Source of the DNA: Sulfurospirillaceae bacterium
GTDB taxonomy: Bacteria; Campylobacterota; Campylobacteria; Campylobacterales; Sulfurospirillaceae
Assembly (NCBI GenBank): GCA_033723415.1
Contig: JAWVXD010000002.1
Coordinates: 1 to 64,000 of the forward strand
Length of the DNA: 64,000 bases
Reading direction: 5' to 3'
In this document: piece after piece, positions 35,297-64,000 of the stretch
Position numbering within the stretch: position 1 is the first letter of the stretch
How the letters are laid out: each line of letters starts with the position of its first letter
Position numbers and translations under genes: made by a program
Notes under the pieces: generated by a model
The model's input: the letters and a program-made list of their open reading frames with translations, nothing else
Database searches by the model: none
Told to the model about the DNA's origin: nothing

Positions 35297-36694
35297 CTAA
35301 CACACTACCATATTGACGGCAAGTCCTCCTTGTGAAGTCTCTTTGTATTTGTTCATCATGTCTTTGCCTGTTTCAAACATGGTTTTGATGACGTTATCCA
35401 ATGAAATAAAATGCTTTCCATCACCGTTTAGCGCCATCCTTGCTGCGTTTATTGCCTTGATAGAAGCCATCGCATTTCTCTCTATGCATGGAACTTGAAC
35501 CAATCCGCCAACCGGATCGCAAGTCAATCCAAGATTATGTTCCATCCCTATCTCTGCAGCATTTTCTACCTGTTCTACGCTTCCGCCCATGGCCTCCGCC
35601 AATGCACCTGCAGCCATAGAACAAGCCACCCCCACTTCACCTTGACAGCCGACATCTGCACCGCTTATGGAAGCATTTTTTTTGTACAAGATCCCGATTG
35701 CACCTGCTGTGAGTAAAAAATCTACGATCTTTTGCTCATCATACTCTCGAAACGAACTGCCAAGGAACCGATTCATATAATGCATAACAGAGGGGATGAT
35801 ACCAGCTGCTCCGTTGGTAGGAGCCGTCACGACGATACCGCCGCACGCATTTTCTTCATTGACAGCTAGTGCCCACAAATCCACCCAATCCAATACTTCA
35901 AGCGGATCGACCATAGAAAAACTGGATCTTTTGGATAATTTTTCATAGATGACGTTTGCTCTTCTTTTTATCCCTGTTTTGGGGAGGCATCCTGTGTTTT
36001 GACAGCCATTTTCAACGCAGTTTTTCATAACTTTCCAGATATTTATCAACGCTTTTTTCACTTCTGCTTCGCTTTTGAGATGCTTTTCATTTTCCATCAT
36101 CAAAGCACTGATACTGAGATCATTTGTTTTACACATCTCCAATAGCTCTTTGGAGCTTTTAAATTCATACGGAAAATGCGAGCTCATTTTCTCTTTTTTA
36201 TTCAAACATTTTTCATCCAGTACTTCACCGCCACCGATAGAGTAGTAAGTTTTTTCGAAGATGCAGATTTTTTGTTTATCATACATATATAATCTCACTG
36301 CATTTGGGTGAAATTCCAAGAACTCATCGAAGTTGAAGATCAAATCCTCATTAAAATCAAAACCGATCTTCTTGATATCCAGTAGATTGATCTTACTGCT
36401 TTTTTTCACGCTCTCAAATGTCTTTTCTGCCTTAGCAGCACTGATGTTGTGCGGCTTATATCCACAAAGCCCTAAGATTATGGCTTTATCGCTTCCATGA
36501 CCTCTACCTGTTGCCGCCAGTGAGCCGAAAAATTCTATTTTGATAGTATGACACTGTTGTAAAAACCCTAGCCTTTTTGATTGAGCGGCAAAATCTCTGC
36601 CTATTTTCATAGGACCGACCGTATGAGAACTAGAAGGACCTATGCCTATCTTAAACACTTCCAACACAGAATAATTCATATTTTCTGCCTTCAT
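35297..36694 (-). CDS. sdaA: Fe-S L-serine dehydratase, single chain
   Basis: [28 protein letters not shown] and [19 protein letters not shown] motifs. Confidence 0.95.
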
Positions 36695-52492: not shown

Positions 52493-53023
52493 TTATATCG
52501 TAGAATCTTTCATCGCTTGATGTAAAACAGCGATATTTTTTTCTGCCAATTTAGAATTCATTTGAGTTATTGCTGCTTCTATATCCTTTTGTGAAAAAGG
52601 GAAATGTGGGTCTCTAGCCAGTGTTGCTCCTAACATATAGACGTTTAGAGCTTGTATATCAAATTCTTTGTCCTTTGCTTTTTGATAAGCATCAATTTTA
52701 ATACTCTCATACTCAGTCTTTGGAAAATCATCACTTGCATTTACTATGATCGTACCTGTTTTTTTGTTTAAAAACTGTATATTTCGAAGTCCTTCATTTC
52801 CATCTAGAGCGATCAACAGATCAGCTTGTCCTTGGTCAATCGCCGGTGAATAAAAATCTCCGACTTTAACATAACATGACACAGACCCGCCTCGCTGACT
52901 CATACCGTGATTTTCCGTTCCTATACACTTTTGCTCATTTATAGAAGCAGCTATGCTTAGAACTTTGACTAAAAAAACCGCACCCTGTCCTCCAATACCA
53001 GCTATGACTATCTGATACCTCAT
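52493..53023 (-). CDS. iorB: Indolepyruvate:ferredoxin oxidoreductase beta subunit
   Basis: GIGGQG, HGMSQRGGSV and NVYMLG motifs. Confidence 0.9.
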   Translation of the reverse strand: MRYQIVIAGIGGQGAVFLVKVLSIAASINEQKCIGTENHGMSQRGGSVSCYVKVGDFYSPAIDQGQADLLIALDGNEGLRNIQFLNKKTGTIIVNASDDFPKTEYESIKIDAYQKAKDKEFDIQALNVYMLGATLARDPHFPFSQKDIEAAITQMNSKLAEKNIAVLHQAMKDSTI

Positions 53024-54828
53024 CTCTCAACCTCCATAAAAGCACCGGTCGGACACACATCATCCAAACATGCAGAACATCCTATACACAAAAATGGATC
53101 TATCTCGATCTTTTTGTCTTCATTATATGCCATAGGCGGACATTTATAAGCAGTTGTACAGATATCGCAAGCGACACATTTGTCCTGATCCACTGTCGCA
53201 TATGTTCCCGGTAGTTTTTCATAAGATATCTCTTTGTCAAGAACACAAAACTCTCTGATAACTGCTACGACAGGTGCATTTGATGATTCATATTTCTCTT
53301 TTAATATTTTCATAAACCCTATGGTTTTATCTATGTCAGGAACATATTCATACTCTAAACACTCGACTCCACATCCTTCTACTATCTTTTTGATATCTAT
53401 ACTTTGAGGGCTGATTCTCTCAGGAGTTACTTGCCTTCCTGTCATAGCGGTAGTTGAGTTATCCAAGATAACAAGCACAAATCTATGATTTAAGCTGACC
53501 GCGTTTATAAGAGGAGCAACACCGGAGTGCAAAAAGGTACTGTCGCCTATAGTAGCTACAACCGTTTTGTTTTTATCTGCTAGAGAGAAACCGCTTGCCA
53601 GTGAAACTGATGCCCCCATACATAAGAAAGCATCTATAGCTCCTTGATTAAGCCCAAGCGTGTAACAACCTATATCTGATGAATATATCGATTTATTTTT
53701 CTTAAAAACTTTCATGATAGAAAAGAAAACATCTCTGTGAGGACAGCCTGGACATAAATTTGGAGGACGATTCGGAAGTGTTTTTTCATATTTTTCATTT
53801 TTATAAAAATCACTTTTTGAGATTATTCCTACATTTGAAAAAGCTGCCAATACTTTATCTTTTGTAAACTCGTCTATTACATGCAGATCTTTTGTGAGTT
53901 TTCCGTGCAATTTAGGGGAACTTAGTTGTTCTTCTATACAAGGATAAGTCTCTTCAAAAACGATGACTTTTTCATATCCTTCAAAAAGTGCCTCAATTTT
54001 CTCTTTCGGCAGAGGATAAGACATATCAAATTTCAGTACATCGGCTTGAATATTCATCTCTTCTATGGCTTCTCTTACATATCCATCACCTGTTCCACTT
54101 GTAAGACACAAGACTTTTTTACCTTCTAACTTTTTGATTCTAGGCTCTATAAGACTTGTCCAATTGAACTCTTTAATGATCTCTATCTTTTCTAATAGCT
54201 CTAAACCTTGTCTAAATCTTCCGGCAGGAGGGACACCTGCCCATCGTGGGATATCTCTTATAAATTTACCTTCAAATGGATTGAAGTTCAATTCATCATC
54301 AACTTCACAGATCTCTCTGGCATGGCAAACTCTCATGACAGGACGTAACATGACAACCGTTTCAAATTGGTGAGATATTTCTATACCCAGTTTTACCATA
54401 TCGTAGGCTTCTTGAGGAGTGGCTGGATCTAAAACAGGAATTTTGGCAAACTTGGCAAAACTACGGCTGTCTTGTTCAGTCTGCGAAGAATGAAAACCAG
54501 GATCATCAGCACTGACCAGTAACATAGCGCCTTTTAGTCCGATATATGCCGCACTCATAAGCGCATCGCTTGCAACATTCAATCCCACCTGTTTCATAGT
54601 AGCACAAGTCTTTTTACCTGCTATTGCTCCTGCGTAGGCAACTTCAAATCCTACTTTTTCATTTGTAGCCCACTCGGCATAGGCATTGACATCAAAATTA
54701 TTTTTATATTTCTGAAAACTGCCTAAAATCTCACTTGACGGCGTTCCAGGATATCCTGAAATCATATCAACACCTGAGTGCACCAGTGAAAGCGCTATGG
54801 CTTCATTCCCCATAAGAATCTTCTTCAT
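53020..54828 (-). CDS. iorA: Indolepyruvate:ferredoxin oxidoreductase alpha subunit (ATG at 54828)
   Basis: LMGNEA, GYPGTPSSE, MKQVGLNVA, CPGCPHR, DIGCY, IGDSTF and two ferredoxin motifs. Confidence 0.94.
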   Translation of the reverse strand: MKKILMGNEAIALSLVHSGVDMISGYPGTPSSEILGSFQKYKNNFDVNAYAEWATNEKVGFEVAYAGAIAGKKTCATMKQVGLNVASDALMSAAYIGLKGAMLLVSADDPGFHSSQTEQDSRSFAKFAKIPVLDPATPQEAYDMVKLGIEISHQFETVVMLRPVMRVCHAREICEVDDELNFNPFEGKFIRDIPRWAGVPPAGRFRQGLELLEKIEIIKEFNWTSLIEPRIKKLEGKKVLCLTSGTGDGYVREAIEEMNIQADVLKFDMSYPLPKEKIEALFEGYEKVIVFEETYPCIEEQLSSPKLHGKLTKDLHVIDEFTKDKVLAAFSNVGIISKSDFYKNEKYEKTLPNRPPNLCPGCPHRDVFFSIMKVFKKNKSIYSSDIGCYTLGLNQGAIDAFLCMGASVSLASGFSLADKNKTVVATIGDSTFLHSGVAPLINAVSLNHRFVLVILDNSTTAMTGRQVTPERISPQSIDIKKIVEGCGVECLEYEYVPDIDKTIGFMKILKEKYESSNAPVVAVIREFCVLDKEISYEKLPGTYATVDQDKCVACDICTTAYKCPPMAYNEDKKIEIDPFLCIGCSACLDDVCPTGAFMEVER

Positions 54829-54868
54829 AAAACGGCTCCTCTTGCCTGAGTATGTCAAAACAAATATT

Positions 54869-55654
54869 TTAAGATGAGTACTTGTTTAAAAATTCAATAA
54901 ATGCTCTAGCTTCATTTTTCGGATAAGAACTTAAAATCTCCAATGATTTTTTAATATGTTCATCAAGCGGCATATCATCTATAGAATCTATGTGTAAGAT
55001 ATCTTCGATCCCGTCAATTTCAAATGAACATTTATCAAAGTGCAAAACAATAGTATCATCATTGAATTGTAACTTATAAAACTTTATATTTGAAGCTGCA
55101 AACTCGCAATCTTTTGTCTTGATCTTGATTTTCATGGCAGATTTTAATTCTAACAGCTGAATGATTGTTAAAAGTGAGTAGTGTGCTTTTGATTCAACAT
55201 TTAATGAAACCAATATTTTTGACACTGTAACTCTCATCTCTTCTGCATCTTCACGTGAGAAAAAATCAGAGTTTATCATATCAACGGCATCTATGATATC
55301 CGCATAATCATCTTTTACTTCATAAGTATCATTGATCATCTCTTTGCCTTCATGCATCAAGATGATTCTCTTTGACAATTCCTTAAAGACTTTTGTATAG
55401 TTTTCTGTATTTACCAAGATCGTCTCAGGTAGCTTATATTTTTCATAATACATCAATTTTGTATTTTGAATCTGCAAAAAACCTCTCTTTAGCAAATATT
55501 CACATCCATCTGCTATTTTTGCATTTATATCTAGGTTGTTAAACTCTTTTGTGTAGACGACATTTTTAAAATCTTTTTGCGAAAAAGCAGTGCCTTGATT
55601 TTTTATGGCATATGTCAAGATATTCACTATAAGTTCAAAGGTACAACTTTTCAT
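54869..55654 (-). CDS. Hypothetical protein, possible wHTH plus degenerate WYL-like domain
   Basis: 261-aa ORF with AAGGA RBS, first gene of the ior unit; domain call rests on pattern resemblance only. Confidence 0.6.
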   Translation of the reverse strand: MKSCTFELIVNILTYAIKNQGTAFSQKDFKNVVYTKEFNNLDINAKIADGCEYLLKRGFLQIQNTKLMYYEKYKLPETILVNTENYTKVFKELSKRIILMHEGKEMINDTYEVKDDYADIIDAVDMINSDFFSREDAEEMRVTVSKILVSLNVESKAHYSLLTIIQLLELKSAMKIKIKTKDCEFAASNIKFYKLQFNDDTIVLHFDKCSFEIDGIEDILHIDSIDDMPLDEHIKKSLEILSSYPKNEARAFIEFLNKYSS

Positions 55655-55824: not shown

Positions 55825-56973
55825 ATGAGAAATGAAAGCAAAAAAAAAGTGATGGTTATAGGAGGCGGCTATGCAGGTATATCACTTCTACACGAATTAA
55901 AAAAGCATAGAGATATAGAACTTACTTTGATAGACAAATCACCAAATCACGTTATGCAGACCCATATACACAAGTACTTGTCCGGACACTACAGTAAAGA
56001 AGATATCACCTGTGACTATCAAGAGTATTGTAAAAAAAACTCCATAAGATTTATCCAAGATGAGATCATTGATATAAAATTTTCTGACAACTACGTTGAA
56101 ACCAAAAATGCCAATACTTATAAATACGATTATATCGTAATAGCAACAGGCGCTACATCCTTCTTTCCTACACAAATAGAGAACATAACAATGTTTACCA
56201 AAGATATAAAGCAGATAGAAAATTTGGATTATTATAGAGAGACTTTTTTAAAATTATTGAGATCTAAACCAAAAAATAAAAATATCCTAGTCGTAGGAGG
56301 AGGCGTTTCAGGACTTCAAATTGCCTGCGAATATGCTCAAACTATCCTATCAAATCATCTTAATTCTGAAAATATCGCCGTAACATTAGTTGAAGGACTT
56401 GATACTATCTTGCCCAATATGGACAAGTTTCTCATAGAAAAATCTATGCAAAGATGCGAACAATTGGGTGTAAAAGTCATAAATAAACTTTTTGCATCAA
56501 AAATATTTCAAGATAAAGTAGTCCTATCAAACTCACTTGAGCTACCTTATGATATCTTAATATTCGTAGTCGGCGTAGCCGGAAACTCCATCAAGAATAT
56601 AGAAAATGACGTAGCTTCAAATCAAAGAAACCAAATCATCGTAGATGAATATTACAGGATAGCTCCATATCAAAATGCCTTTGCCATAGGCGATATAGTA
56701 CAAGCTATAGATGTTAAAACTAAAACCTTTCAAACTCCTACAGCACAGGCTTCTAGAATGCAAGCAGAGTTGGTTTCCAAAAATATTATAAACAGTATAA
56801 AAGGCAGAAATCTAGTCAAAAACAACATTTCCAACAAAGGTATATTTATAGACTTAGGCGGAACGAACAGCGCTATAGGAAAACTCTCTGCTCTTAATAT
56901 AAAAGGTAAAATAGCTCTTTGGATGAAAAAGCTCATATATTCACTTCATATAAGAAAACTTAATAAAATGTAA
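55825..56973 (+). CDS. NAD(P)/FAD-dependent oxidoreductase, NDH-2/AIF-like
   Basis: GGGYAG, IATG, VVGGGVSG, AIGD and TAQ motifs. Confidence 0.88.
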   Translation: MRNESKKKVMVIGGGYAGISLLHELKKHRDIELTLIDKSPNHVMQTHIHKYLSGHYSKEDITCDYQEYCKKNSIRFIQDEIIDIKFSDNYVETKNANTYKYDYIVIATGATSFFPTQIENITMFTKDIKQIENLDYYRETFLKLLRSKPKNKNILVVGGGVSGLQIACEYAQTILSNHLNSENIAVTLVEGLDTILPNMDKFLIEKSMQRCEQLGVKVINKLFASKIFQDKVVLSNSLELPYDILIFVVGVAGNSIKNIENDVASNQRNQIIVDEYYRIAPYQNAFAIGDIVQAIDVKTKTFQTPTAQASRMQAELVSKNIINSIKGRNLVKNNISNKGIFIDLGGTNSAIGKLSALNIKGKIALWMKKLIYSLHIRKLNKM

Positions 56974-57094: not shown

Positions 57095-57160
57095 ATGAAA
57101 AACATTATAAAAATATCCAGTATTAAAATCCCTGCTTCTATAATGAAAGCTCAAATATGA
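57095..57160 (+). other. 21-aa uORF MKNIIKISSIKIPASIMKAQI coupled (ATGA) to the first permease; binding-protein deletion scar or leader peptide
   Basis: AAAGGAAG RBS; its stop overlaps the permease ATG. Confidence 0.55.
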
Positions 57161-58026
57161 GTGAATTGTTACAATTTATCTTTGGCGGTCTTACTGTCGG
57201 GTTTATATATGCTCTTGTAGGATTGGGCTTTACCGTAATCTATAATTCAAGCAAGATCATAAACTTTTCCCAAGGTGAGTTTGTCATGGTTGGCGGCATG
57301 TCTGCAGTATTTTTATCATATGCAAAATTCCCTTTTGTATTGGCGTTTCCAATCGCCATATTTCTTTCTTCTCTGCTAGGATATATACTGTTTAAACTTG
57401 TTTCTATATCAAAGAACTCATCAACTACATCTTTGATCATATTGACACTTGGTTATTCTATTTTTTTAAGAGGAGCGGCTCAAGTCGTGTTTGATAAACA
57501 GATGCACACTTTGCCGGCTTTTATAAGCAACACTCCTATAAATGTTTTCGGAGCTACTATAACTCCACAGGCAATTCTTGTAATCGTTGTATCGCTTATC
57601 ATAGTTTTTGGTTTGTATTTTCTATTTAACAAAACAAAACTCGGTAAAGCTATGCTTGCTACGGCAGATAATAAAAATGCAGCAAAACTTGTAGGTATTT
57701 CTGTTCGCAAGATATTGATCTGGAATTTTATGATCTCTGCAGGAATCGCTTCTATCGGAGGAATTGTTTTAACTCCCATAATATCTACAAATTATGAGAT
57801 CGGAATTATGCTCGGACTTAAAGGGTTTTGTGCGGCGATCATAGGCGGCATCGGCAATCCTTTCGGCGCTGTTTTTGGCGGAGTATTGCTAGGTGTGCTT
57901 GAATCTTTCGTTGCAGGTTATTTAAGCAGTGAATACAAAGATGCCGTCGCATTTATAGTTTTACTGTTGATTTTATTCTTTTTCCCGGGCGGTCTGTTTG
58001 GGTCTAAAAAATTTGTGAGAGTTTAA
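57157..58026 (+). CDS. HAAT/LIV-type ABC permease (LivH-like)
   Basis: YALVGLG, INFSQGE, LGKAMLA and GGIGN motifs. Confidence 0.92.
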   Translation: MSELLQFIFGGLTVGFIYALVGLGFTVIYNSSKIINFSQGEFVMVGGMSAVFLSYAKFPFVLAFPIAIFLSSLLGYILFKLVSISKNSSTTSLIILTLGYSIFLRGAAQVVFDKQMHTLPAFISNTPINVFGATITPQAILVIVVSLIIVFGLYFLFNKTKLGKAMLATADNKNAAKLVGISVRKILIWNFMISAGIASIGGIVLTPIISTNYEIGIMLGLKGFCAAIIGGIGNPFGAVFGGVLLGVLESFVAGYLSSEYKDAVAFIVLLLILFFFPGGLFGSKKFVRV

Positions 58027-58027
58027 T

Positions 58028-58969
58028 ATGAGAAATAATGGTTTATTTTTAGATAAGGGAATTGTGTTAATGATAGCCATATTGTGTATCTTGCCTTTGA
58101 TACTGCAAAATAGCTTTCACTATGAGATTGCGATCACAAGTATGTTAAATGCCGTCATCTGTATAGGTCTCAATATGCTGGTAGGATATGCCGGACAGAT
58201 CTCTCTGGGTCATGGAGCTTTTGCCGGACTTGGAGCATATGTTGCTATCATCCTCTCTACAACTTTTGGATTTGATCCTGTCTTAAGCATCGCTATATCT
58301 TGTATTGTTCTTGCTGTTTTGGCTTTTCTTGTATCAAAGCCTATCCTGAAACTTGAAGGTCACTATCTGGCTATGGGAACTTTGGCGGTAGGTATCATCA
58401 TCTCCCTTGTTCTTACTAATCAATCAGACTTAACGGGCGGACCTGACGGTATGAGCGTATCGCAATTTAGTATATTCGGATATGTGTTCAATAATGATAT
58501 GCAATGGTATGTGATTTCTGCTTTTCTTTTGGTTTTTTCTATTTGGGCGCTACAAAATGTCATTCATTCGCCATTTGGAAGGATACTCAGGTGTATCAGA
58601 GATTCTGAGACTGCAGCAAAATCAATAGGTGCAGACGTACCATACTATAAGACTTATGTATTTGTCATCTCCGTTGTTATAGCAACAATCGCAGGAAGTT
58701 TATATGCGTACTATTCAGGCTTTATATCTCCTGCAGATTCGAGTTTCACAAGATCAATCCAACTTGTCGTCATGATAGTCTTTGGCGGATTAGGAAGGAT
58801 TTACGGCGCTGTATTTGGAGCGGTGATCATCACGGCACTGCCGCAGCTTTTGACTTCCTTGCACGATTACGAGCAAATGGTCTACGGTGCGATTATTATC
58901 TTTGTCATGATATTTATGCCGAAGGGAATCGTATCCATATTTGACCGTTTCAGAAAGGAGGAGGTATGA
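58028..58969 (+). CDS. HAAT/LIV-type ABC permease (LivM-like)
   Basis: GYAGQISLGHGAF, GHYLAM and TGGPDG motifs. Confidence 0.92.
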   Translation: MRNNGLFLDKGIVLMIAILCILPLILQNSFHYEIAITSMLNAVICIGLNMLVGYAGQISLGHGAFAGLGAYVAIILSTTFGFDPVLSIAISCIVLAVLAFLVSKPILKLEGHYLAMGTLAVGIIISLVLTNQSDLTGGPDGMSVSQFSIFGYVFNNDMQWYVISAFLLVFSIWALQNVIHSPFGRILRCIRDSETAAKSIGADVPYYKTYVFVISVVIATIAGSLYAYYSGFISPADSSFTRSIQLVVMIVFGGLGRIYGAVFGAVIITALPQLLTSLHDYEQMVYGAIIIFVMIFMPKGIVSIFDRFRKEEV

Positions 58970-59742
58970 GCTTATTAAAAGTTTCAGGTATCTCTAAAAA
59001 TTTTGGCGGACTAAAAGCTCTGGATGATATATCATTTGAAGTACAAGAAGGAACTATACACGCGCTAATCGGTCCTAACGGAGCCGGGAAGACTACGCTT
59101 GTAAATATGATATCCGGCATATATTCTGTTGAAGAGGGACAAATTTTCTTCAATGATGAAGAGATCACAAATACACCGACCCACAAATTGGTAAGCAAAC
59201 ACATTGTAAGGACATTTCAAAATCTGGAGATCTGTGAAAATATGACCGTAATGGAAAACGTACTTCTTGGTTTCAATATCAATATGAATAAAAGTCTTCT
59301 AAAATGCTCTTTCCAATTTGAATCCATCATAGACGATGAAGAGAAGTTTAAGCACATTGCCTTGTCTCACCTTAAGCGAATAGGACTCGAAGATGTTGCT
59401 TATAAAAAATGTTCTTCCCTCTCTTATGGCGTACTTAAAAAAGTAGAGATCGTCAGAGCTTTAGCCAACAATCCAAAGCTGCTTTTACTAGATGAGCCTG
59501 TTGCCGGATTAAACGGTACGGAAACAGCAGAGATAGCAGAAATCATAAAAGAAATAGCAGCAGAGGGAGTCACAATACTTTTGATCGAACATGATATGAA
59601 AATGATCATGAACATCTCCGATATGATCACGGTGGTAAACTTCGGACAAAAGCTCGCAGAGGGAAAACCAAAAGAGATATCATCTAACCCTGAAGTGATC
59701 AAAGCATATCTGGGAGAAGGATCGTTACATGCAAAAGTCTGA
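58966..59742 (+). CDS. LIV-type ABC ATPase (LivG-like)
   Basis: FGGLKAL, GPNGAGKTT, RTFQN, LDEP and IEHDM motifs. Confidence 0.93.
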   Translation: MSLLKVSGISKNFGGLKALDDISFEVQEGTIHALIGPNGAGKTTLVNMISGIYSVEEGQIFFNDEEITNTPTHKLVSKHIVRTFQNLEICENMTVMENVLLGFNINMNKSLLKCSFQFESIIDDEEKFKHIALSHLKRIGLEDVAYKKCSSLSYGVLKKVEIVRALANNPKLLLLDEPVAGLNGTETAEIAEIIKEIAAEGVTILLIEHDMKMIMNISDMITVVNFGQKLAEGKPKEISSNPEVIKAYLGEGSLHAKV

Positions 59743-60454
59743 TTTATTATTGAAGATTAGTGATCTGGATTGTCATTATGGGCATATTCATGTTTTACAA
59801 AATATAAATATAGAGATCAAAAAAGGTGAGATAGTCGCACTGATCGGTGCAAACGGTGCAGGAAAAACAACTTTGATGAAAACTATCTCAGGACTTAAAA
59901 TACAAAATAAAGGCGATATCATATACAAGGACAATATAGATATCACAAAAACTCTGCCTGAAAAAAGAGTTAAGCTCGGTATCGCTCAAGTTCCTGAGGG
60001 AAGAGAGCTTTTCAAATCAATGAGCGTTTATGACAATCTGATGCTAGGTTCATACACAAGAACAGATAAACTCGGCATACAAGAAGATCTAGATTTTGTA
60101 TATGATAAATTTCCTATACTTTTTGAAAAAAGAGATATAATATCTGGCAATCTCTCAGGGGGACAACAGCAGATGCTTGCAATAGGCAGAGCGCTCATGT
60201 CAAAACCTGATCTTTTATTGATGGATGAACCCTCAATGGGACTGGCACCTGTGATCGTAGAAGAGATATTTGCTTTTATTGAAGAACTTAAGAAAATCCA
60301 CATGACGGTGTTTTTAGTCGAACAAAACTCATACTTTGCCCTCAGCATATCAAACCACGCTTATGTACTAGAAAACGGCGAGATCGTTTTAAGCGGTAAC
60401 TCTGAAGATTTGATCAAAGACAACAGAGTAAAAGAAGCATATTTAGGAATGTAA
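59729..60454 (+). CDS. LIV-type ABC ATPase (LivF-like)
   Basis: GANGAGKTT, VPEGR, LSGGQQQM and DEPSMGLAP motifs. Confidence 0.93.
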   Translation: MQKSDLLLKISDLDCHYGHIHVLQNINIEIKKGEIVALIGANGAGKTTLMKTISGLKIQNKGDIIYKDNIDITKTLPEKRVKLGIAQVPEGRELFKSMSVYDNLMLGSYTRTDKLGIQEDLDFVYDKFPILFEKRDIISGNLSGGQQQMLAIGRALMSKPDLLLMDEPSMGLAPVIVEEIFAFIEELKKIHMTVFLVEQNSYFALSISNHAYVLENGEIVLSGNSEDLIKDNRVKEAYLGM

Positions 60455-61228
60455 ATGAATTATAAAAATATAATAGTAGAAAAACTACAAAACGGTGTCG
60501 GTGTTATAACGCTCAATAGACCGGAAGCTTACAATGCAATCAACACTTTATTGCTTGAGGAGATATCTAGTGCCATCAAAGACTTTGATGCAGATCCTTT
60601 GATCGGAGCAGTAGTTCTAACAGGTGGAGATAAAGTTTTTGCTGCCGGTGCAGATATAAAAGAGTTGGCAAATCTAGATTTTGCAAGTGCTTACAATAAT
60701 GACTTCGTAAAAAAAGAGTGGTCGGCTTTGGAAAATCATGTCAAACCGATAATTGCAGCGATCAGTGGATATGCATTGGGTGGAGGTTGTGAGATGGCTT
60801 TGTTGTGCGATATCGCTATCTGTGATTGGAGTGCAAAATTCGGACAGCCTGAAGTTAAAATAGGAACGATGCCAGGAGCCGGCGGGACTCAAAGATTGAC
60901 CAAAGCAGTAGGAAAATCAAAAGCTATGCATATGTGTCTCACAGGCGATATGATAGATGCCAAAGAGGCAGAGTATTACAAACTTGTCTCAAAAATAGTA
61001 GATCATGATGTTATGAAAGAAGCTATAAAGATAGCAGAAAAGATTGCTTCCATGTCAAAGCCCGTCGTGAAACTGATCAAAGAGTCTATAAACAATGCAT
61101 ATGAATCAAATCTGCAAGCCGGATTGGTAGCTGAGCGACAATCTTTTTATGCAACATTGGCTCTTGAAGACAGGATCGAAGGTATGAATGCTTTTATCGA
61201 AAAAAGAAAAGCAAACTTTAAAAACTAA
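60455..61228 (+). CDS. Enoyl-CoA hydratase, PaaF/EchA8-like
   Basis: FAAGADIKE, ALGGGCE and FGQPE...PGAGGTQRL; both catalytic glutamates present. Confidence 0.92.
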   Translation: MNYKNIIVEKLQNGVGVITLNRPEAYNAINTLLLEEISSAIKDFDADPLIGAVVLTGGDKVFAAGADIKELANLDFASAYNNDFVKKEWSALENHVKPIIAAISGYALGGGCEMALLCDIAICDWSAKFGQPEVKIGTMPGAGGTQRLTKAVGKSKAMHMCLTGDMIDAKEAEYYKLVSKIVDHDVMKEAIKIAEKIASMSKPVVKLIKESINNAYESNLQAGLVAERQSFYATLALEDRIEGMNAFIEKRKANFKN

Positions 61229-61257: not shown

Positions 61258-61297
61258 AAAATATAGCTATCATAAAAAAATAGTATAGCTATATTTT
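61258..61297. repeat. AT-rich inverted repeat built from two ATAGCTAT palindromes
   Basis: AAAATATAGCTAT-N14-ATAGCTATATTTT. Confidence 0.55.
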
Positions 61298-61430: not shown

Positions 61431-61469
61431 TGATACAATAATATTTAATTTACTAAAATAATTGAAGTA
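61431..61469. promoter_or_regulatory. Putative PaaX operator 3, overlapping the extended -10 of the oxygenase operon
   Basis: TGATACA-N25-TGAAGTA; the left half overlaps TGaTACAAT. Confidence 0.6.
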
Positions 61470-61499: not shown

Positions 61500-62525
61500 A
61501 TGTCAAGCAGAGAAAAACTTGCCGGAACAATGGAATTTCCACCGCCTACTGAGCAGCCAAATGTTTACCCGCTAAGCTGGGTTAATAAAACAATGAAACT
61601 GCAAGAAATCTGGGATGCTTCTCAAAGAGAATACTGGGATCCTGCAAAACTGCCTTGGGATACTTTTGATGTATCCAAATACAGTTGGGAACAGAGGGAA
61701 TCTATAGCCTATTGGTGGACAATTCTTTCTGTATTTGACGCTTCTGCGCCTCCTGTATTTGCATCTGCCCTTATCAAGACTTATGAATTACATGAAGAAG
61801 ATCTAGTTAGAAGATGTTTTTTTTCTGTTACAAGAGATGAGCAAAATCACGAACAAATGTGTGGTATGGCTATTACAAAATTACTAGAACATCCGGATCC
61901 TATAACCTATACACCTAAAACAGATATCGGTAAAAGACTCCAAAAAAATGCAAAATGGTTATATTACAATGGAGGAAGATATTGGGATGGTTTTAAACAC
62001 GCAGTTCCAAAATACTCACTTGCAGTTCTTTTTTCATCATTTTTGATGGGTGAGATCGCAGCTGCGACAATATTCCACCAAATGTCAGCAGGATGCAGTG
62101 AGCTGGTATTTAAAGAAGGTTTTAAGAAAATAGGTATGGATGAAGGTAGACATATGGCTATCATATTGACACTTATGGAGAGAGATTATCCAAAACTGAA
62201 CAATGAAGATAAAGCAACTATAACCAAACAGATAAGAGCCGGTTACTTATTTCTCTCTGCCGTTTTGTTTGAGCCGCCTGAAGATTTTTGGGATATCCCA
62301 TCAGACTTTATCGCCAATCAAAGAGAAGGTGAAGCATTTGCCAGAGAAGCAGGTTTTCACATCCCTGAGTATGAAGCAAAAAAAGAAAATTGGAAAAATG
62401 CGATGCTTAATCTAAAAGGCGTCCTAGATAAATACGATACAGAATTCCCGGCAATTCCAGAAGTAGGAATCACCGGTAAAGAGATCACGGATATCGATAT
62501 GGAAGATATCATCCCTGTATTTTAA
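61500..62525 (+). CDS. Ferritin-like diiron-carboxylate protein, putative oxygenase
   Basis: Ligand pattern D80, E114xxH117, E185, E215xxH218; AAGGAG RBS; adjacent to a reductase. Confidence 0.8.
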   Translation: MSSREKLAGTMEFPPPTEQPNVYPLSWVNKTMKLQEIWDASQREYWDPAKLPWDTFDVSKYSWEQRESIAYWWTILSVFDASAPPVFASALIKTYELHEEDLVRRCFFSVTRDEQNHEQMCGMAITKLLEHPDPITYTPKTDIGKRLQKNAKWLYYNGGRYWDGFKHAVPKYSLAVLFSSFLMGEIAAATIFHQMSAGCSELVFKEGFKKIGMDEGRHMAIILTLMERDYPKLNNEDKATITKQIRAGYLFLSAVLFEPPEDFWDIPSDFIANQREGEAFAREAGFHIPEYEAKKENWKNAMLNLKGVLDKYDTEFPAIPEVGITGKEITDIDMEDIIPVF

Positions 62526-62549
62526 AAATTTAGTTATAGGTCAAAGATC

Positions 62550-63569
62550 ATGAAAAAAATAATTATACAGCCATCGGGCAAATCGATTGATTGCCCGGAT
62601 GGAGAATCAGTACTTTCCGTATTGGAAAAACAAGGTTACGCACTACCTAATAACTGTAGAGCTGGTGCTTGCGGAGAGTGTAAAATAAAAGTTTTAAGTG
62701 GTACCTTTGACCAAGGTTTTGTTATGGATATGGCTCTGTCACAAGCTGATAGAGCTGCCGGTTTCGGCTTGATGTGCATGGCAAAACCAACTTCTGAAGT
62801 TTTAGAAATAGAATTTGGAACAGAAGATGCCAAGCCAAAACTATTTCCACCTGTTGAAAATTCTTGGCATATCGTCACAGACAAGATACAAAGAACAGAT
62901 AAGATACTGGAATTAAAACTTGCTCCTTTAGGTCAATCAATCAAATTTTGGCCAGGTCAATATGCGATGATAGGAGACGGAACAGCTGAACATCCATTGC
63001 GACCATACTCAATCGCAAATGCTCCAAAACAAAATGGAGAATTGAGCTTTTTTATCACAAAAGAAGAAGGCGGCAAAACAAGTCCTTGGATACATGATGA
63101 AGTAAATATTGGAGACAATATCAAAGTCAACGCTCCTTATGGAACATTTCTGGGAGATCCAAGCGTGAATACACCAATACTTTGTCTGGCTTCGGGAAGT
63201 GGTTTAGCACCCATACTTTCTTTGTTAAATGCATATCTAAGCAGAGGACACAAAAATCCTGTAACTCTTTTGTTTTCAGCCAAAACGAAAAAGGACCTCT
63301 TGCATTTTGGTAAGATAAAATATTTAGAGTCAAAATATGTCAACTTCAAATACAAATATACACTTACACAAGAAAGCAACAAAGAGGGAGGACTGGAAGG
63401 CAGGATAAGTACAGTTTTACCTAATCTTATACCAAATCTAGCAAACTATTCTATCTATATCGCCGGTGGAGTTTCCTTTGTGGAATCTTGTAAAAAGACT
63501 GTAGAAGCCCTTGGAGCAGAAGAAAATCTGATCCATATGGAAGAGTACTTTGCACAACAAGTGCAGTAG
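62550..63569 (+). CDS. 2Fe-2S/FAD/NAD(P)H oxygenase reductase (FNR family)
   Basis: CRAGACGEC...LMC, RPYS, GGKTS and GSGLAP motifs. Confidence 0.93.
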   Translation: MKKIIIQPSGKSIDCPDGESVLSVLEKQGYALPNNCRAGACGECKIKVLSGTFDQGFVMDMALSQADRAAGFGLMCMAKPTSEVLEIEFGTEDAKPKLFPPVENSWHIVTDKIQRTDKILELKLAPLGQSIKFWPGQYAMIGDGTAEHPLRPYSIANAPKQNGELSFFITKEEGGKTSPWIHDEVNIGDNIKVNAPYGTFLGDPSVNTPILCLASGSGLAPILSLLNAYLSRGHKNPVTLLFSAKTKKDLLHFGKIKYLESKYVNFKYKYTLTQESNKEGGLEGRISTVLPNLIPNLANYSIYIAGGVSFVESCKKTVEALGAEENLIHMEEYFAQQVQ

Positions 63570-63587
63570 CGGATTACTTTAATCCGC
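63569..63587. terminator. Hairpin overlapping the stop codons of the convergent reductase and paaX genes
   Basis: GCGGATTA-ctt-TAATCCGC. Confidence 0.55.
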
Positions 63588-64000
63588 CAAATCTGTTAAA
63601 ATAGAACTTATCTAACTTTGGATTGTTACCTCCGACTGTCAGCAAATTCTCTTTTATATATTCATTTGCCTGGTTATGAATAGCAGCGTAAACAGAATCA
63701 ACCAAAGATGCGGCAGCTTTCCCAAGCCAATCTATCGAAACCAGTTCATTTCCTAGTTTAGGATCATATAAAAGTGCCCTTCTGTACTCATGGATCAACA
63801 ATATTCTCAACATAAAACACTGCTTCGTAGTAAATTCATCAATCGGTGTTTTAAGTGCAAATATTTTTCTAAATTTCGTGATAAAACTCTGATATCTCTC
63901 TTCAACGTCTTTTAAATCCCAAAAGATATTTGCCATATCTTTCAAAATCTCCTTATTCATAGGCATATCCGCAGTTCCGTTTATAAGTAAAACATCATTT
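63574..64000 (-). CDS. paaX: PaaX family aryl-CoA-sensing repressor, C-terminal part (continues beyond the window)
   Basis: WDL...Y..F and LLIHEYRRALLYDPKL...DWLG PaaX C-terminal signature; frame open to the window edge. Confidence 0.88.
   Translation of the reverse strand, partial: NDVLLINGTADMPMNKEILKDMANIFWDLKDVEERYQSFITKFRKIFALKTPIDEFTTKQCFMLRILLIHEYRRALLYDPKLGNELVSIDWLGKAAASLVDSVYAAIHNQANEYIKENLLTVGGNNPKLDKFYFNRFGGLK

Follow-up and report, generated by a model that had tools for sequence, protein, structure and literature searches.

A single-subunit di-metal oxygenase and its reductase as a candidate phenylacetyl-CoA epoxidase in a Sulfurospirillaceae phenylacetate cluster

Which enzyme attacks the aromatic ring in a near-complete phenylacetate (paa) gene cluster that has no PaaA? 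The question is raised by the first 64,000 nucleotides (the window) of contig JAWVXD010000002.1, from the 100% complete Sulfurospirillaceae genome GCA_033723415.1, where a ferritin-like di-metal oxygenase gene is followed by the gene of a [2Fe-2S]/FAD/NAD(P)H reductase (coordinates in Table 1). We propose that the two proteins are probably a two-component phenylacetyl-coenzyme A (CoA) 1,2-epoxidase, not homologous to PaaA at the sequence level, whose activity is predicted; that the oxygenase acts on phenylacetyl-CoA or a close analogue is very likely. In its own genome the pair probably replaces the five-gene PaaABC(D)E epoxidase, because no candidate for attack on the ring other than its two proteins was found in the cluster.

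Ligand set, fold and reductase partner

An earlier note, made from the letters of this DNA, had read a ligand set of D80, E114-x-x-H117, E185 and E215-x-x-H218 in the oxygenase. The six residues stand at those positions and each is invariant in the 120 closest homologs (at least 76% identity), among which 110 of the 341 positions are invariant; for both reasons the set is not due to chance. In an AlphaFold2 model built from a 74-row alignment (predicted local distance difference test score, pLDDT, 91.4; predicted template modelling score 0.88), they map to four bundle helices, at residues 63-96, 101-129, 174-198 and 202-232. That D80 is the first metal ligand is supported by alignment and by helix position in the model, which stand in for a measured geometry. 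The family profile aligns D80 with the 'LLD' Asp of the class Ib ribonucleotide reductase (RNR) protein R2F (PDB 3mjo), which we take to be the first metal ligand there, and W46 with the conserved R2 Trp. The assignment in R2F agrees with PMC4118035, which also describes the metal (Fe versus Mn/Fe) of R2/R2lox-type proteins as not assignable from sequence; the site of the oxygenase is probably diiron. W46, D214 and H117 have the arrangement of the R2 triad, and Cys121, kept in 120/120 close homologs, occupies the position of the R2 radical Tyr. An equivalent of Cys121 is also present in 12 of 20 distant homologs (full-length proteins hand-picked out of 150 listed), and the D80 column of this set holds Glu in 12, Asp in six and other residues in two. 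The protein had also been called Trp-rich, which its 11 Trp (3.2%) bear out only modestly.

The Asp ligand had been presented as the oddity of the protein. It does come first, as in class Ia/Ib R2, but PaaA and BoxB also carry one Asp, on the other iron. The census of three Glu, two His and a single Asp is that reported for PaaA, and the BoxB ligands are given as E120, E150, H153, D211, E240 and H243 (both PMC5489048). With D80 first and E185 as the third carboxylate, the Asp of the oxygenase would lie at the pseudo-symmetric site, on the first iron and not on the second as in PaaA and BoxB.

Of 2312 candidates, 884 belong to the oxygenase family at an E of at most 0.001, and 50% clustering reduced it to 223 representatives. 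Homologs are labelled 'hypothetical protein', 'rubrerythrin' or 'AurF', with one UniRef label 'Ribonucleotide-diphosphate reductase subunit beta', and the closest named relative is a Sulfurospirillum sp. 1612 protein (97% identity). In the profile search no Pfam or NCBIfam family exceeded its cut-off, PF11583 (AurF) being the only Pfam lead (E 0.0067, 16.1 bits versus a cut-off of 29.6). A sequence search of solved structures found no real relative (best E 0.24); searched with the family profile, the best natural match was R2lox (E 0.0008). ESM Atlas returned only automatic 'ferritin-like' clusters, with features also near acyl-(acyl carrier protein) desaturases. VIA-align placed R2lox (4hr0) first (Z 19.2, root-mean-square deviation (rmsd) 3.4, 265 residues aligned) and human R2 next (Z 18.8), a ranking with which Foldseek agrees (best E 5.6e-4). 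Family profiles, hhalign and structure comparison concur with the earlier view that this is a distinct two-component di-metal oxygenase, and not PaaA, PaaC, BoxB or AurF.

The reductase has Fer2, FAD_binding_6 and NAD_binding_1 domains, all over cut-off, in an order like that of MmoC and BenC and not that of PaaE, and it scores 132.7 bits against the PaaE family TIGR02160 (cut-off 420.8). The YIAGG motif singled out previously lies at residues 303-307, and the replacement of C-G by A-G is family-wide, A305 and G306 being invariant in 36/36 aligned reductases (36 of the 80 found). The A-G variant presumably resembles that of Fre-type reductases. In the best 80 of 285 genomic matches (the relative loci, given L numbers), the reductase gene lies directly downstream of the oxygenase gene in 80/80, at a gap of 3-356 nucleotides; the gap here is 24 nucleotides. 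No beta, gamma or effector gene adjoins the pair, as had been noted, and among relatives only the reductase recurs beside the oxygenase gene. We found no oxygenase-reductase fusion among proteins of 598-2000 residues, which is weak evidence.

Complex prediction placed the ferredoxin domain on the oxygenase with a score of 0.63 (runs 0.67, 0.63 and 0.10; best control 0.00), a mark reached by 116/157 solved pairs and 2/215 mismatched pairs. Contacts agree to at least 92%, partner pLDDT is at least 85, and cluster loop 34-43 of the reductase is placed on oxygenase residues 186-193 and 212-224. This supports direct electron transfer from reductase to oxygenase without an effector, although the prediction may reflect likeness to solved ferredoxin-oxygenase complexes.

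Linkage to phenylacetate genes and candidate operators

The earlier note suggested an aryl or aryl-CoA substrate and was blind to the paa context, as the greater part of the cluster falls beyond base 64,000. An aryl-CoA is indeed likely, and the cluster narrows it to phenylacetyl-CoA. In profile searches the paaN and thiolase products exceed their cut-offs, PaaK reaches 622.9 of 646.3 and PaaG 338.5 of 345.2, and PaaX scores 98.8 over its C-terminal part only. The genome has no PF05138 (PaaA/C) match, no PaaA, PaaB, PaaC, hmgA, maiA or FAD hydroxylase by tblastn, no BoxB and no HgmA_N (homogentisate dioxygenase).

The oxygenase follows PaaG across genomes, with the proviso that kin are not independent in any of the co-occurrence counts and that the Campylobacterales carriers may overlap the set of relative loci. 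Among 301 Campylobacterales, oxygenase and PaaG occur in the same four genomes, this one included, and the four have no PF05138, BoxB or HgmA_N match. Among 151 genomes of a Rhodocyclaceae-family sample (the family of the L016 host), PaaG is present in 29/29 carriers, and 0/88 PaaG-negative genomes carry the oxygenase. The oxygenase gene lies at most 8 kb from paaG in 11 of the 14 carriers without PaaA (three on other contigs) and in 2 of the 15 with PaaA (seven on other contigs). For 50 host genomes taken from the 80 loci, with Azospirillum thinned, PaaG was found in 46 at E 1e-75 (39 over cut-off); 21 have no PaaA/C-type protein, of which 20 have PaaG, and in a further two the sole such protein is a divergent PF05138 one. 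Within 10 kb of the pair, 36/80 loci (17 of Azospirillum type) have a paa gene, and one further locus has a generic crotonase only.

Upstream of the pair is a 271-nucleotide spacer, and the convergent paaX lies 4 nucleotides past the stop. The earlier statement that the oxygenase is co-transcribed only with the reductase is favoured by the 24-nucleotide gap, the spacer and the convergent paaX; a terminator scan of the spacer found no terminator-like site, and there may be read-through from the upstream transporter and crotonase genes. An inverted repeat in the spacer is too AT-rich for that scan. The spacer also holds a PaaX-type operator candidate, which matches the reported E. coli PaaX site, TGATTC(N27)GAATCA (PMC9493321), in 5/6 and 4/6 half-site positions. 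A scan of 79 upstream regions (our own and those of the 78 loci whose flank sufficed) found this type in 42 and the PaaR type, after the site ACCGACCGGTCGGT reported as validated in Burkholderia cenocepacia (PMC2770484), in 19; either was found in 61/79. In shuffles the means are 1.3 and the maxima 4 and 3, where the shuffles preserve base composition only and the patterns were picked after the upstream regions had been viewed. With such sites upstream of relatives, even stand-alone copies therefore look wired to phenylacetyl-CoA.

The pair may also fill a published gap in the pathway. Sedimenticola CUZ is reported to grow aerobically on phenylacetate without paaABCD (Carlstrom et al., 2015). 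The locus tags in that report run from paaE (04215) to paaZ (04217), paaF, paaG, paaH, paaJ and paaK (04222) with one gene skipped; those of strain NSS run from 36170 to 36190, again with one gene skipped, and the machine-read layout of the figure text has 'hyp' there (Carlstrom et al.). Named family members include the Sedimenticola selenatireducens proteins WP_051302444.1 and WP_144360280.1, as well as proteins of S. thiotaurini and S. hydrogenitrophicus. In a quick tree (79 rows, 12 Azospirillum-type rows dropped, long outgroup branches) the Campylobacterota members form one clade and L046 groups with two named Sedimenticola proteins; we claim no donor or direction of transfer. Among 81 genomes from the family to which the L046 host belongs, six carry the oxygenase. 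In L046 and 5/5 further loci a bifunctional paaZ lies directly upstream of it in the same orientation, and the five further genomes have no PaaA-type match better than E 1e-6. Loci L128 and L129 have the order paaX-reductase-oxygenase-paaZ-paaF-paaG-paaH-paaJ-paaK, and L131 is alike through paaJ, its oxygenase copy having one internal stop. From the tag numbering and the gene order in kin, we infer that the skipped gene (CUZ_04216/NSS_00036180) is a family oxygenase and that the CUZ 'paaE' is its reductase. In the open literature, a search that left subscription papers and most supplements outside, we found no description of the family, no paper on the four family accessions or the two skipped tags, and nothing that pairs a paa cluster with a ferritin-like, diiron or uncharacterized protein.

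The epoxidase assignment and its rivals

The pair shares with the E. coli PaaABC(D)E system (PDB 3PVR/3PW1) its place in the pathway, a PaaX/PaaR regulon and the neighbours paaK, paaG, paaZ/N, paaJ and paaH, as well as a ferritin-like fold, the ligand census and an FAD/[2Fe-2S] reductase. The latter is predicted to dock where PaaE has been proposed to do so (PMC4498308), at the iron-binding helices E/F. It differs in that the oxygenase has no PF05138/TIGR02156 match (hhalign probability 0.1 against a PaaA), no PaaB, PaaC or PaaD accompanies the pair (PaaB and PaaC were not found in the genome), and the reductase is ferredoxin-first and far below the PaaE cut-off. BoxAB of Azoarcus evansii (PDB 3PER/3PM5) likewise consists of one oxygenase subunit and one reductase with no effector, in an aryl-CoA hybrid pathway and with one Asp among four carboxylates, the complex of our pair being predicted only. 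The oxygenase has 341 residues versus 477 in the solved BoxB chain, 8% identity and no TIGR03225 match, the reductase is of another type, and the context is paa, not box; BoxB is reported not to accept phenylacetyl-CoA (Carlstrom et al.). R2lox (PDB 4HR0) shares the R2-like fold and the conserved N-terminal Trp, but its carboxylates are all Glu, with Glu first, and identity is 9%; R2lox is further marked by a Mn/Fe cofactor, a fatty-acid ligand and a Tyr-Val cross-link. Class Ia/Ib R2 shares that Trp and, by alignment, the Asp as first ligand, but its radical Tyr, the fourth residue past the first His, is Cys121 in the oxygenase, and the oxygenase lacks a PF00268 match. As a difference from both, a dedicated reductase gene follows in 80/80 loci, and no RNR large subunit is among the recurrent neighbours of the pair. 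The arylamine N-oxygenases AurF and CmlI, the source of the 'AurF' labels, are likewise single-subunit ferritin-like oxygenases; PF11583 is below cut-off, and the context of the pair is catabolic whereas theirs is biosynthetic. Ile211 presumably sits where AurF has its extra, third His ligand. Bacterial multicomponent monooxygenases (MMO, ToMO, phenol hydroxylase) have alpha, beta and gamma subunits and an effector, whereas the pair has a reductase only. In function the pair is predicted to resemble PaaABCE; it resembles BoxAB in build and R2/R2lox in fold, and it lacks one or more defining traits of each.

PaaG is reported to act on the 1,2-epoxide and PaaZ on oxepin-CoA (PMC4498308), and because no other maker of these compounds was found, epoxidation is the best reading of the pair. 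In the pathway that we envisage, PaaK (or IorAB) would make phenylacetyl-CoA, which would release PaaX from the operator at 61431. Electrons would pass from NAD(P)H through FAD to the [2Fe-2S] cluster of the reductase, the ferredoxin loop of which would dock straight onto oxygenase helices E/F, and the reduced di-metal site (D80, E114, H117, E185, E215, H218) would activate O2 and add one oxygen across ring C1-C2. PaaG would then isomerise the epoxide to oxepin-CoA, and ring hydrolysis followed by PaaN, PaaJ, PaaF and PaaH would yield acetyl-CoA and succinyl-CoA.

Several observations weigh against this assignment, foremost among them coexistence with PaaA, which is its main unexplained fact. 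Canonical PaaA/C is present in 27/50 hosts, the pair stands beside paaABCDE genes in 6/80 loci, and strict mutual exclusion was rejected, as carriers make up 15/30 of the Rhodocyclaceae-family genomes with PaaG and PaaA versus 14/33 of those with PaaG only (p 0.62). An isoenzyme role with other O2 kinetics would explain the coexistence. Moreover, 19/63 PaaG-positive Rhodocyclaceae-family genomes have neither PaaA nor the oxygenase: in seven, paaG is preceded by a lone divergent PF05138 gene, two have a contig break beside paaG, and ten have reduced clusters in which no oxygenase was seen. PaaG without any epoxidase is thus not rare, and a retained paaG is therefore no proof of epoxide formation. 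The fold is nearer R2lox and R2 than PaaA (VIA-align Z 15.3, rmsd 4.1, 229 aligned, 9% identity), AurF (14.7) or BoxB (13.6). Five other intergenic regions of the cluster yielded no PaaX-type site. For the ring-opening step, neither a MaoC domain nor a crotonase that exceeds the oxepin_alt cut-off was found in the genome; a missing oxepin-CoA hydrolase is reported for many paa clusters with only the aldehyde dehydrogenase (PMC9007349, PMC4498308). Homogentisate genes (hmgA, FAH and maiA) occur in 16/80 loci, with a FAD monooxygenase too in 15, and Carlstrom et al. found a homogentisate-type cluster important in CUZ on phenylacetate with O2.

Coexistence could also mean that the pair is an accessory enzyme of the paa regulon, one that removes the oxygen of the epoxide, detoxifies it or tropone-type side products, or acts on a ring-substituted phenylacetyl-CoA. 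PaaABCE itself is reported to have reductive deoxygenase activity (PMC4498308), PaaA is present in 15/29 Rhodocyclaceae-family carriers as well as in the 27/50 hosts, the oxygenase is inserted between paaK and paaA in Comamonadaceae, and relatives of about 50% identity lie in a different cluster, with CoA-ligase, MaoC, crotonase and thiolase genes. Such an enzyme would depend on a supply of epoxide, for which no source was found in our genome or in 21/50 hosts; in the absence of PaaA the gene shifts to the core cluster (11/14 versus 2/15), and coexistence is equally expected of an isoenzyme with other O2 kinetics. We consider an accessory role unlikely.

The homogentisate genes suggest another product, formed by a phenylacetyl-CoA ring hydroxylase: an arene oxide would undergo an NIH shift to 2- or 3-hydroxyphenylacetyl-CoA, and thioester hydrolysis and a FAD monooxygenase would lead to homogentisate. 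The monooxygenase of the 15 loci is of PRK08132 type, in L119 inserted homogentisate genes separate paaK from the pair, the CUZ and NSS proteomes point to the homogentisate-type cluster on phenylacetate with O2 (Carlstrom et al.), and density functional theory on BoxB puts opening of the epoxide to a phenol only slightly above epoxide formation (PMC5489048). Yet our genome and three other Campylobacterales carriers have paaG, paaN, paaJ, paaF and paaH and no homogentisate dioxygenase, nearly all hmg-linked loci belong to one genus (Azospirillum type), the co-oriented paaZ of six loci fits the oxepin route, and the hmg genes may serve as a salvage route for leaked epoxide. NIH-shift chemistry, raised in the earlier note, is disfavoured as the main chemistry in this genome, which has no homogentisate route, and stays a rival elsewhere; as a general reading we hold it to be quite improbable.

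A radical or oxidase protein of the R2 or R2lox kind that acts on no aromatic compound (RNR small subunit, desaturase or O2 scavenger) is very improbable: R2lox and R2 are the top structural matches, Asp comes first and W46 is placed as in R2, one UniRef label names an RNR and ESM features lie near desaturases, but Cys121 is at the radical-Tyr position in 120/120, PF00268 does not match, no RNR large subunit is among the recurrent neighbours, operators and gene context are paa-specific, and the genome has its own nrdB elsewhere. An RNR role as such was rejected on Cys121 and the separate nrdB.

If the pair is the phenylacetyl-CoA epoxidase, it could represent a third, independently evolved aryl-CoA epoxidase family from the R2/R2lox branch. 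This would accomplish with one 341-residue subunit and a reductase what takes PaaABCE four proteins, with the Asp on the mirror-image iron, and serve as sole or low-O2 isoenzyme in microaerophilic and denitrifying bacteria; as CUZ_04216/NSS_00036180 it would explain how Sedimenticola and Dechloromarinus grow aerobically on phenylacetate. To this wider proposal we give about an even chance. The pair is a concrete candidate for the hole recorded since 2015, aerobic growth on phenylacetate without paaABCD. PMC13186573 advocates PaaA and PaaC as markers for finding the pathway in genomes, and under the epoxidase assignment they would overlook 21/50 hosts, among them genomes of Campylobacterota, of Magnetospirillum and of the Sedimenticola family. 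For work on mechanism and for biocatalysis, an arene epoxidase with one subunit would offer a much simpler system than PaaABCE, and the R2-type first Asp in a natural oxygenase is relevant to how radical-generating and oxygen-transferring diiron sites differ.

Neighbouring genes and divergent relatives

Table 1. Features of the window and adjoining contig, and coordinates in relative loci
Feature	Position	Strand	Remarks
Oxygenase open reading frame (ORF)	61500..62525	+	341 residues; ferritin-like di-metal (probably diiron); ORF call, alignment, predicted model
Predicted ligand codons	D80 61737; E114 61839; H117 61848; E185 62052; E215 62142; H218 62151	+	
Cys121 codon	61860-61862	+	R2 radical-Tyr position
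Reductase	62550..63569	+	339 residues; [2Fe-2S] ferredoxin first (C36, C41, C44, C76), then FAD and NAD(P)H domains
PaaX-type operator candidate	61431..61469	+	TGATAC-N27-GAAGTA; kept at same place in Campylobacterota relatives
Inverted repeat	61268-61294		atatagcta ... tagctatat; after crotonase
Second crotonase	60455..61228	+	enoyl-CoA hydratase family; just upstream in Campylobacterota relatives too
Liv-type ATP-binding cassette (ABC) transporter	57157..60454	+	permease and ATPase genes, four ORFs
NDH-2/pyridine nucleotide-disulphide type flavoprotein	55825-56973	+	divergent
Protein of no family	54869-55654	-	261 residues
iorA/iorB-like aryl-pyruvate:ferredoxin oxidoreductase	52493..54858	-	TIGR03336 586.7 bits, cut-off 650.9
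paaX, 3' part	63574..64000	-	312 residues; reaches contig position 64512
ORF of no family	contig 64584-65186 (L081:4584-5186)	-	200 residues; between paaX and paaK
paaK, paaJ, paaI, paaH, paaG, paaF	past window, after the 200-residue ORF	-	
paaN, paaY (plus), ABC binding protein	past window		cluster ends at contig position 74875
Divergent PF05138 genes	L083:7111-7887; L093:8800-9588; L089:7119-7883; L092:8842-9609; L099:5864-6667; L087; L094; L072:7582-8397		
Vitreoscilla filiformis pVF1	L141:1-12078		
Variovorax sp. RA8 plasmid 2	L142:5598-12053		

The second crotonase, a candidate for the oxepin-CoA hydrolase step, does not reach the cut-off set for the alternative hydrolase already known. 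The Liv-type transporter probably takes up phenylacetate, to judge from gene context. By analogy with Aromatoleum, where an Ior-type enzyme is reported to yield phenylacetyl-CoA from phenylpyruvate (PMC9765128), iorAB is a possible second source of phenylacetyl-CoA, its link to the cluster being conjectural. The 261-residue protein and the flavoprotein accompany the cluster in most Campylobacterota loci examined, and ESM Atlas gave no lead above 0.82; ORFs similar to the 200-residue ORF occur in five related loci.

The lone divergent PF05138 protein of the seven Rhodocyclaceae-family genomes has about 260 residues, scores 77-89 bits and is 23-25% identical to PaaA, with the first Glu and the last ExxH kept. 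A divergent flavodoxin-like gene accompanies it in 6/7, and it is possibly a further minimal epoxidase or a remnant. A PF05138-related gene also adjoins the oxygenase-reductase pair in two Azospirillum-type loci.

Within the oxygenase family, several metal ligands are gone from a distant subgroup (P0171, P0188, P0194, P0197 and P0227), with A or N for E215 among the changes; it may be a structural paralogue without activity, in the way that PaaC relates to PaaA. On Vitreoscilla filiformis pVF1 the pair is plasmid-borne and adjoins a complete paaABCDE-paaZ cluster. On plasmid 2 of Variovorax sp. RA8, a subfamily with 50% identity lies among TetR, MaoC, crotonase, OB-fold/thiolase, CoA-ligase, oxygenase, reductase and ABC genes, and probably belongs to a sister pathway for another aryl-CoA.

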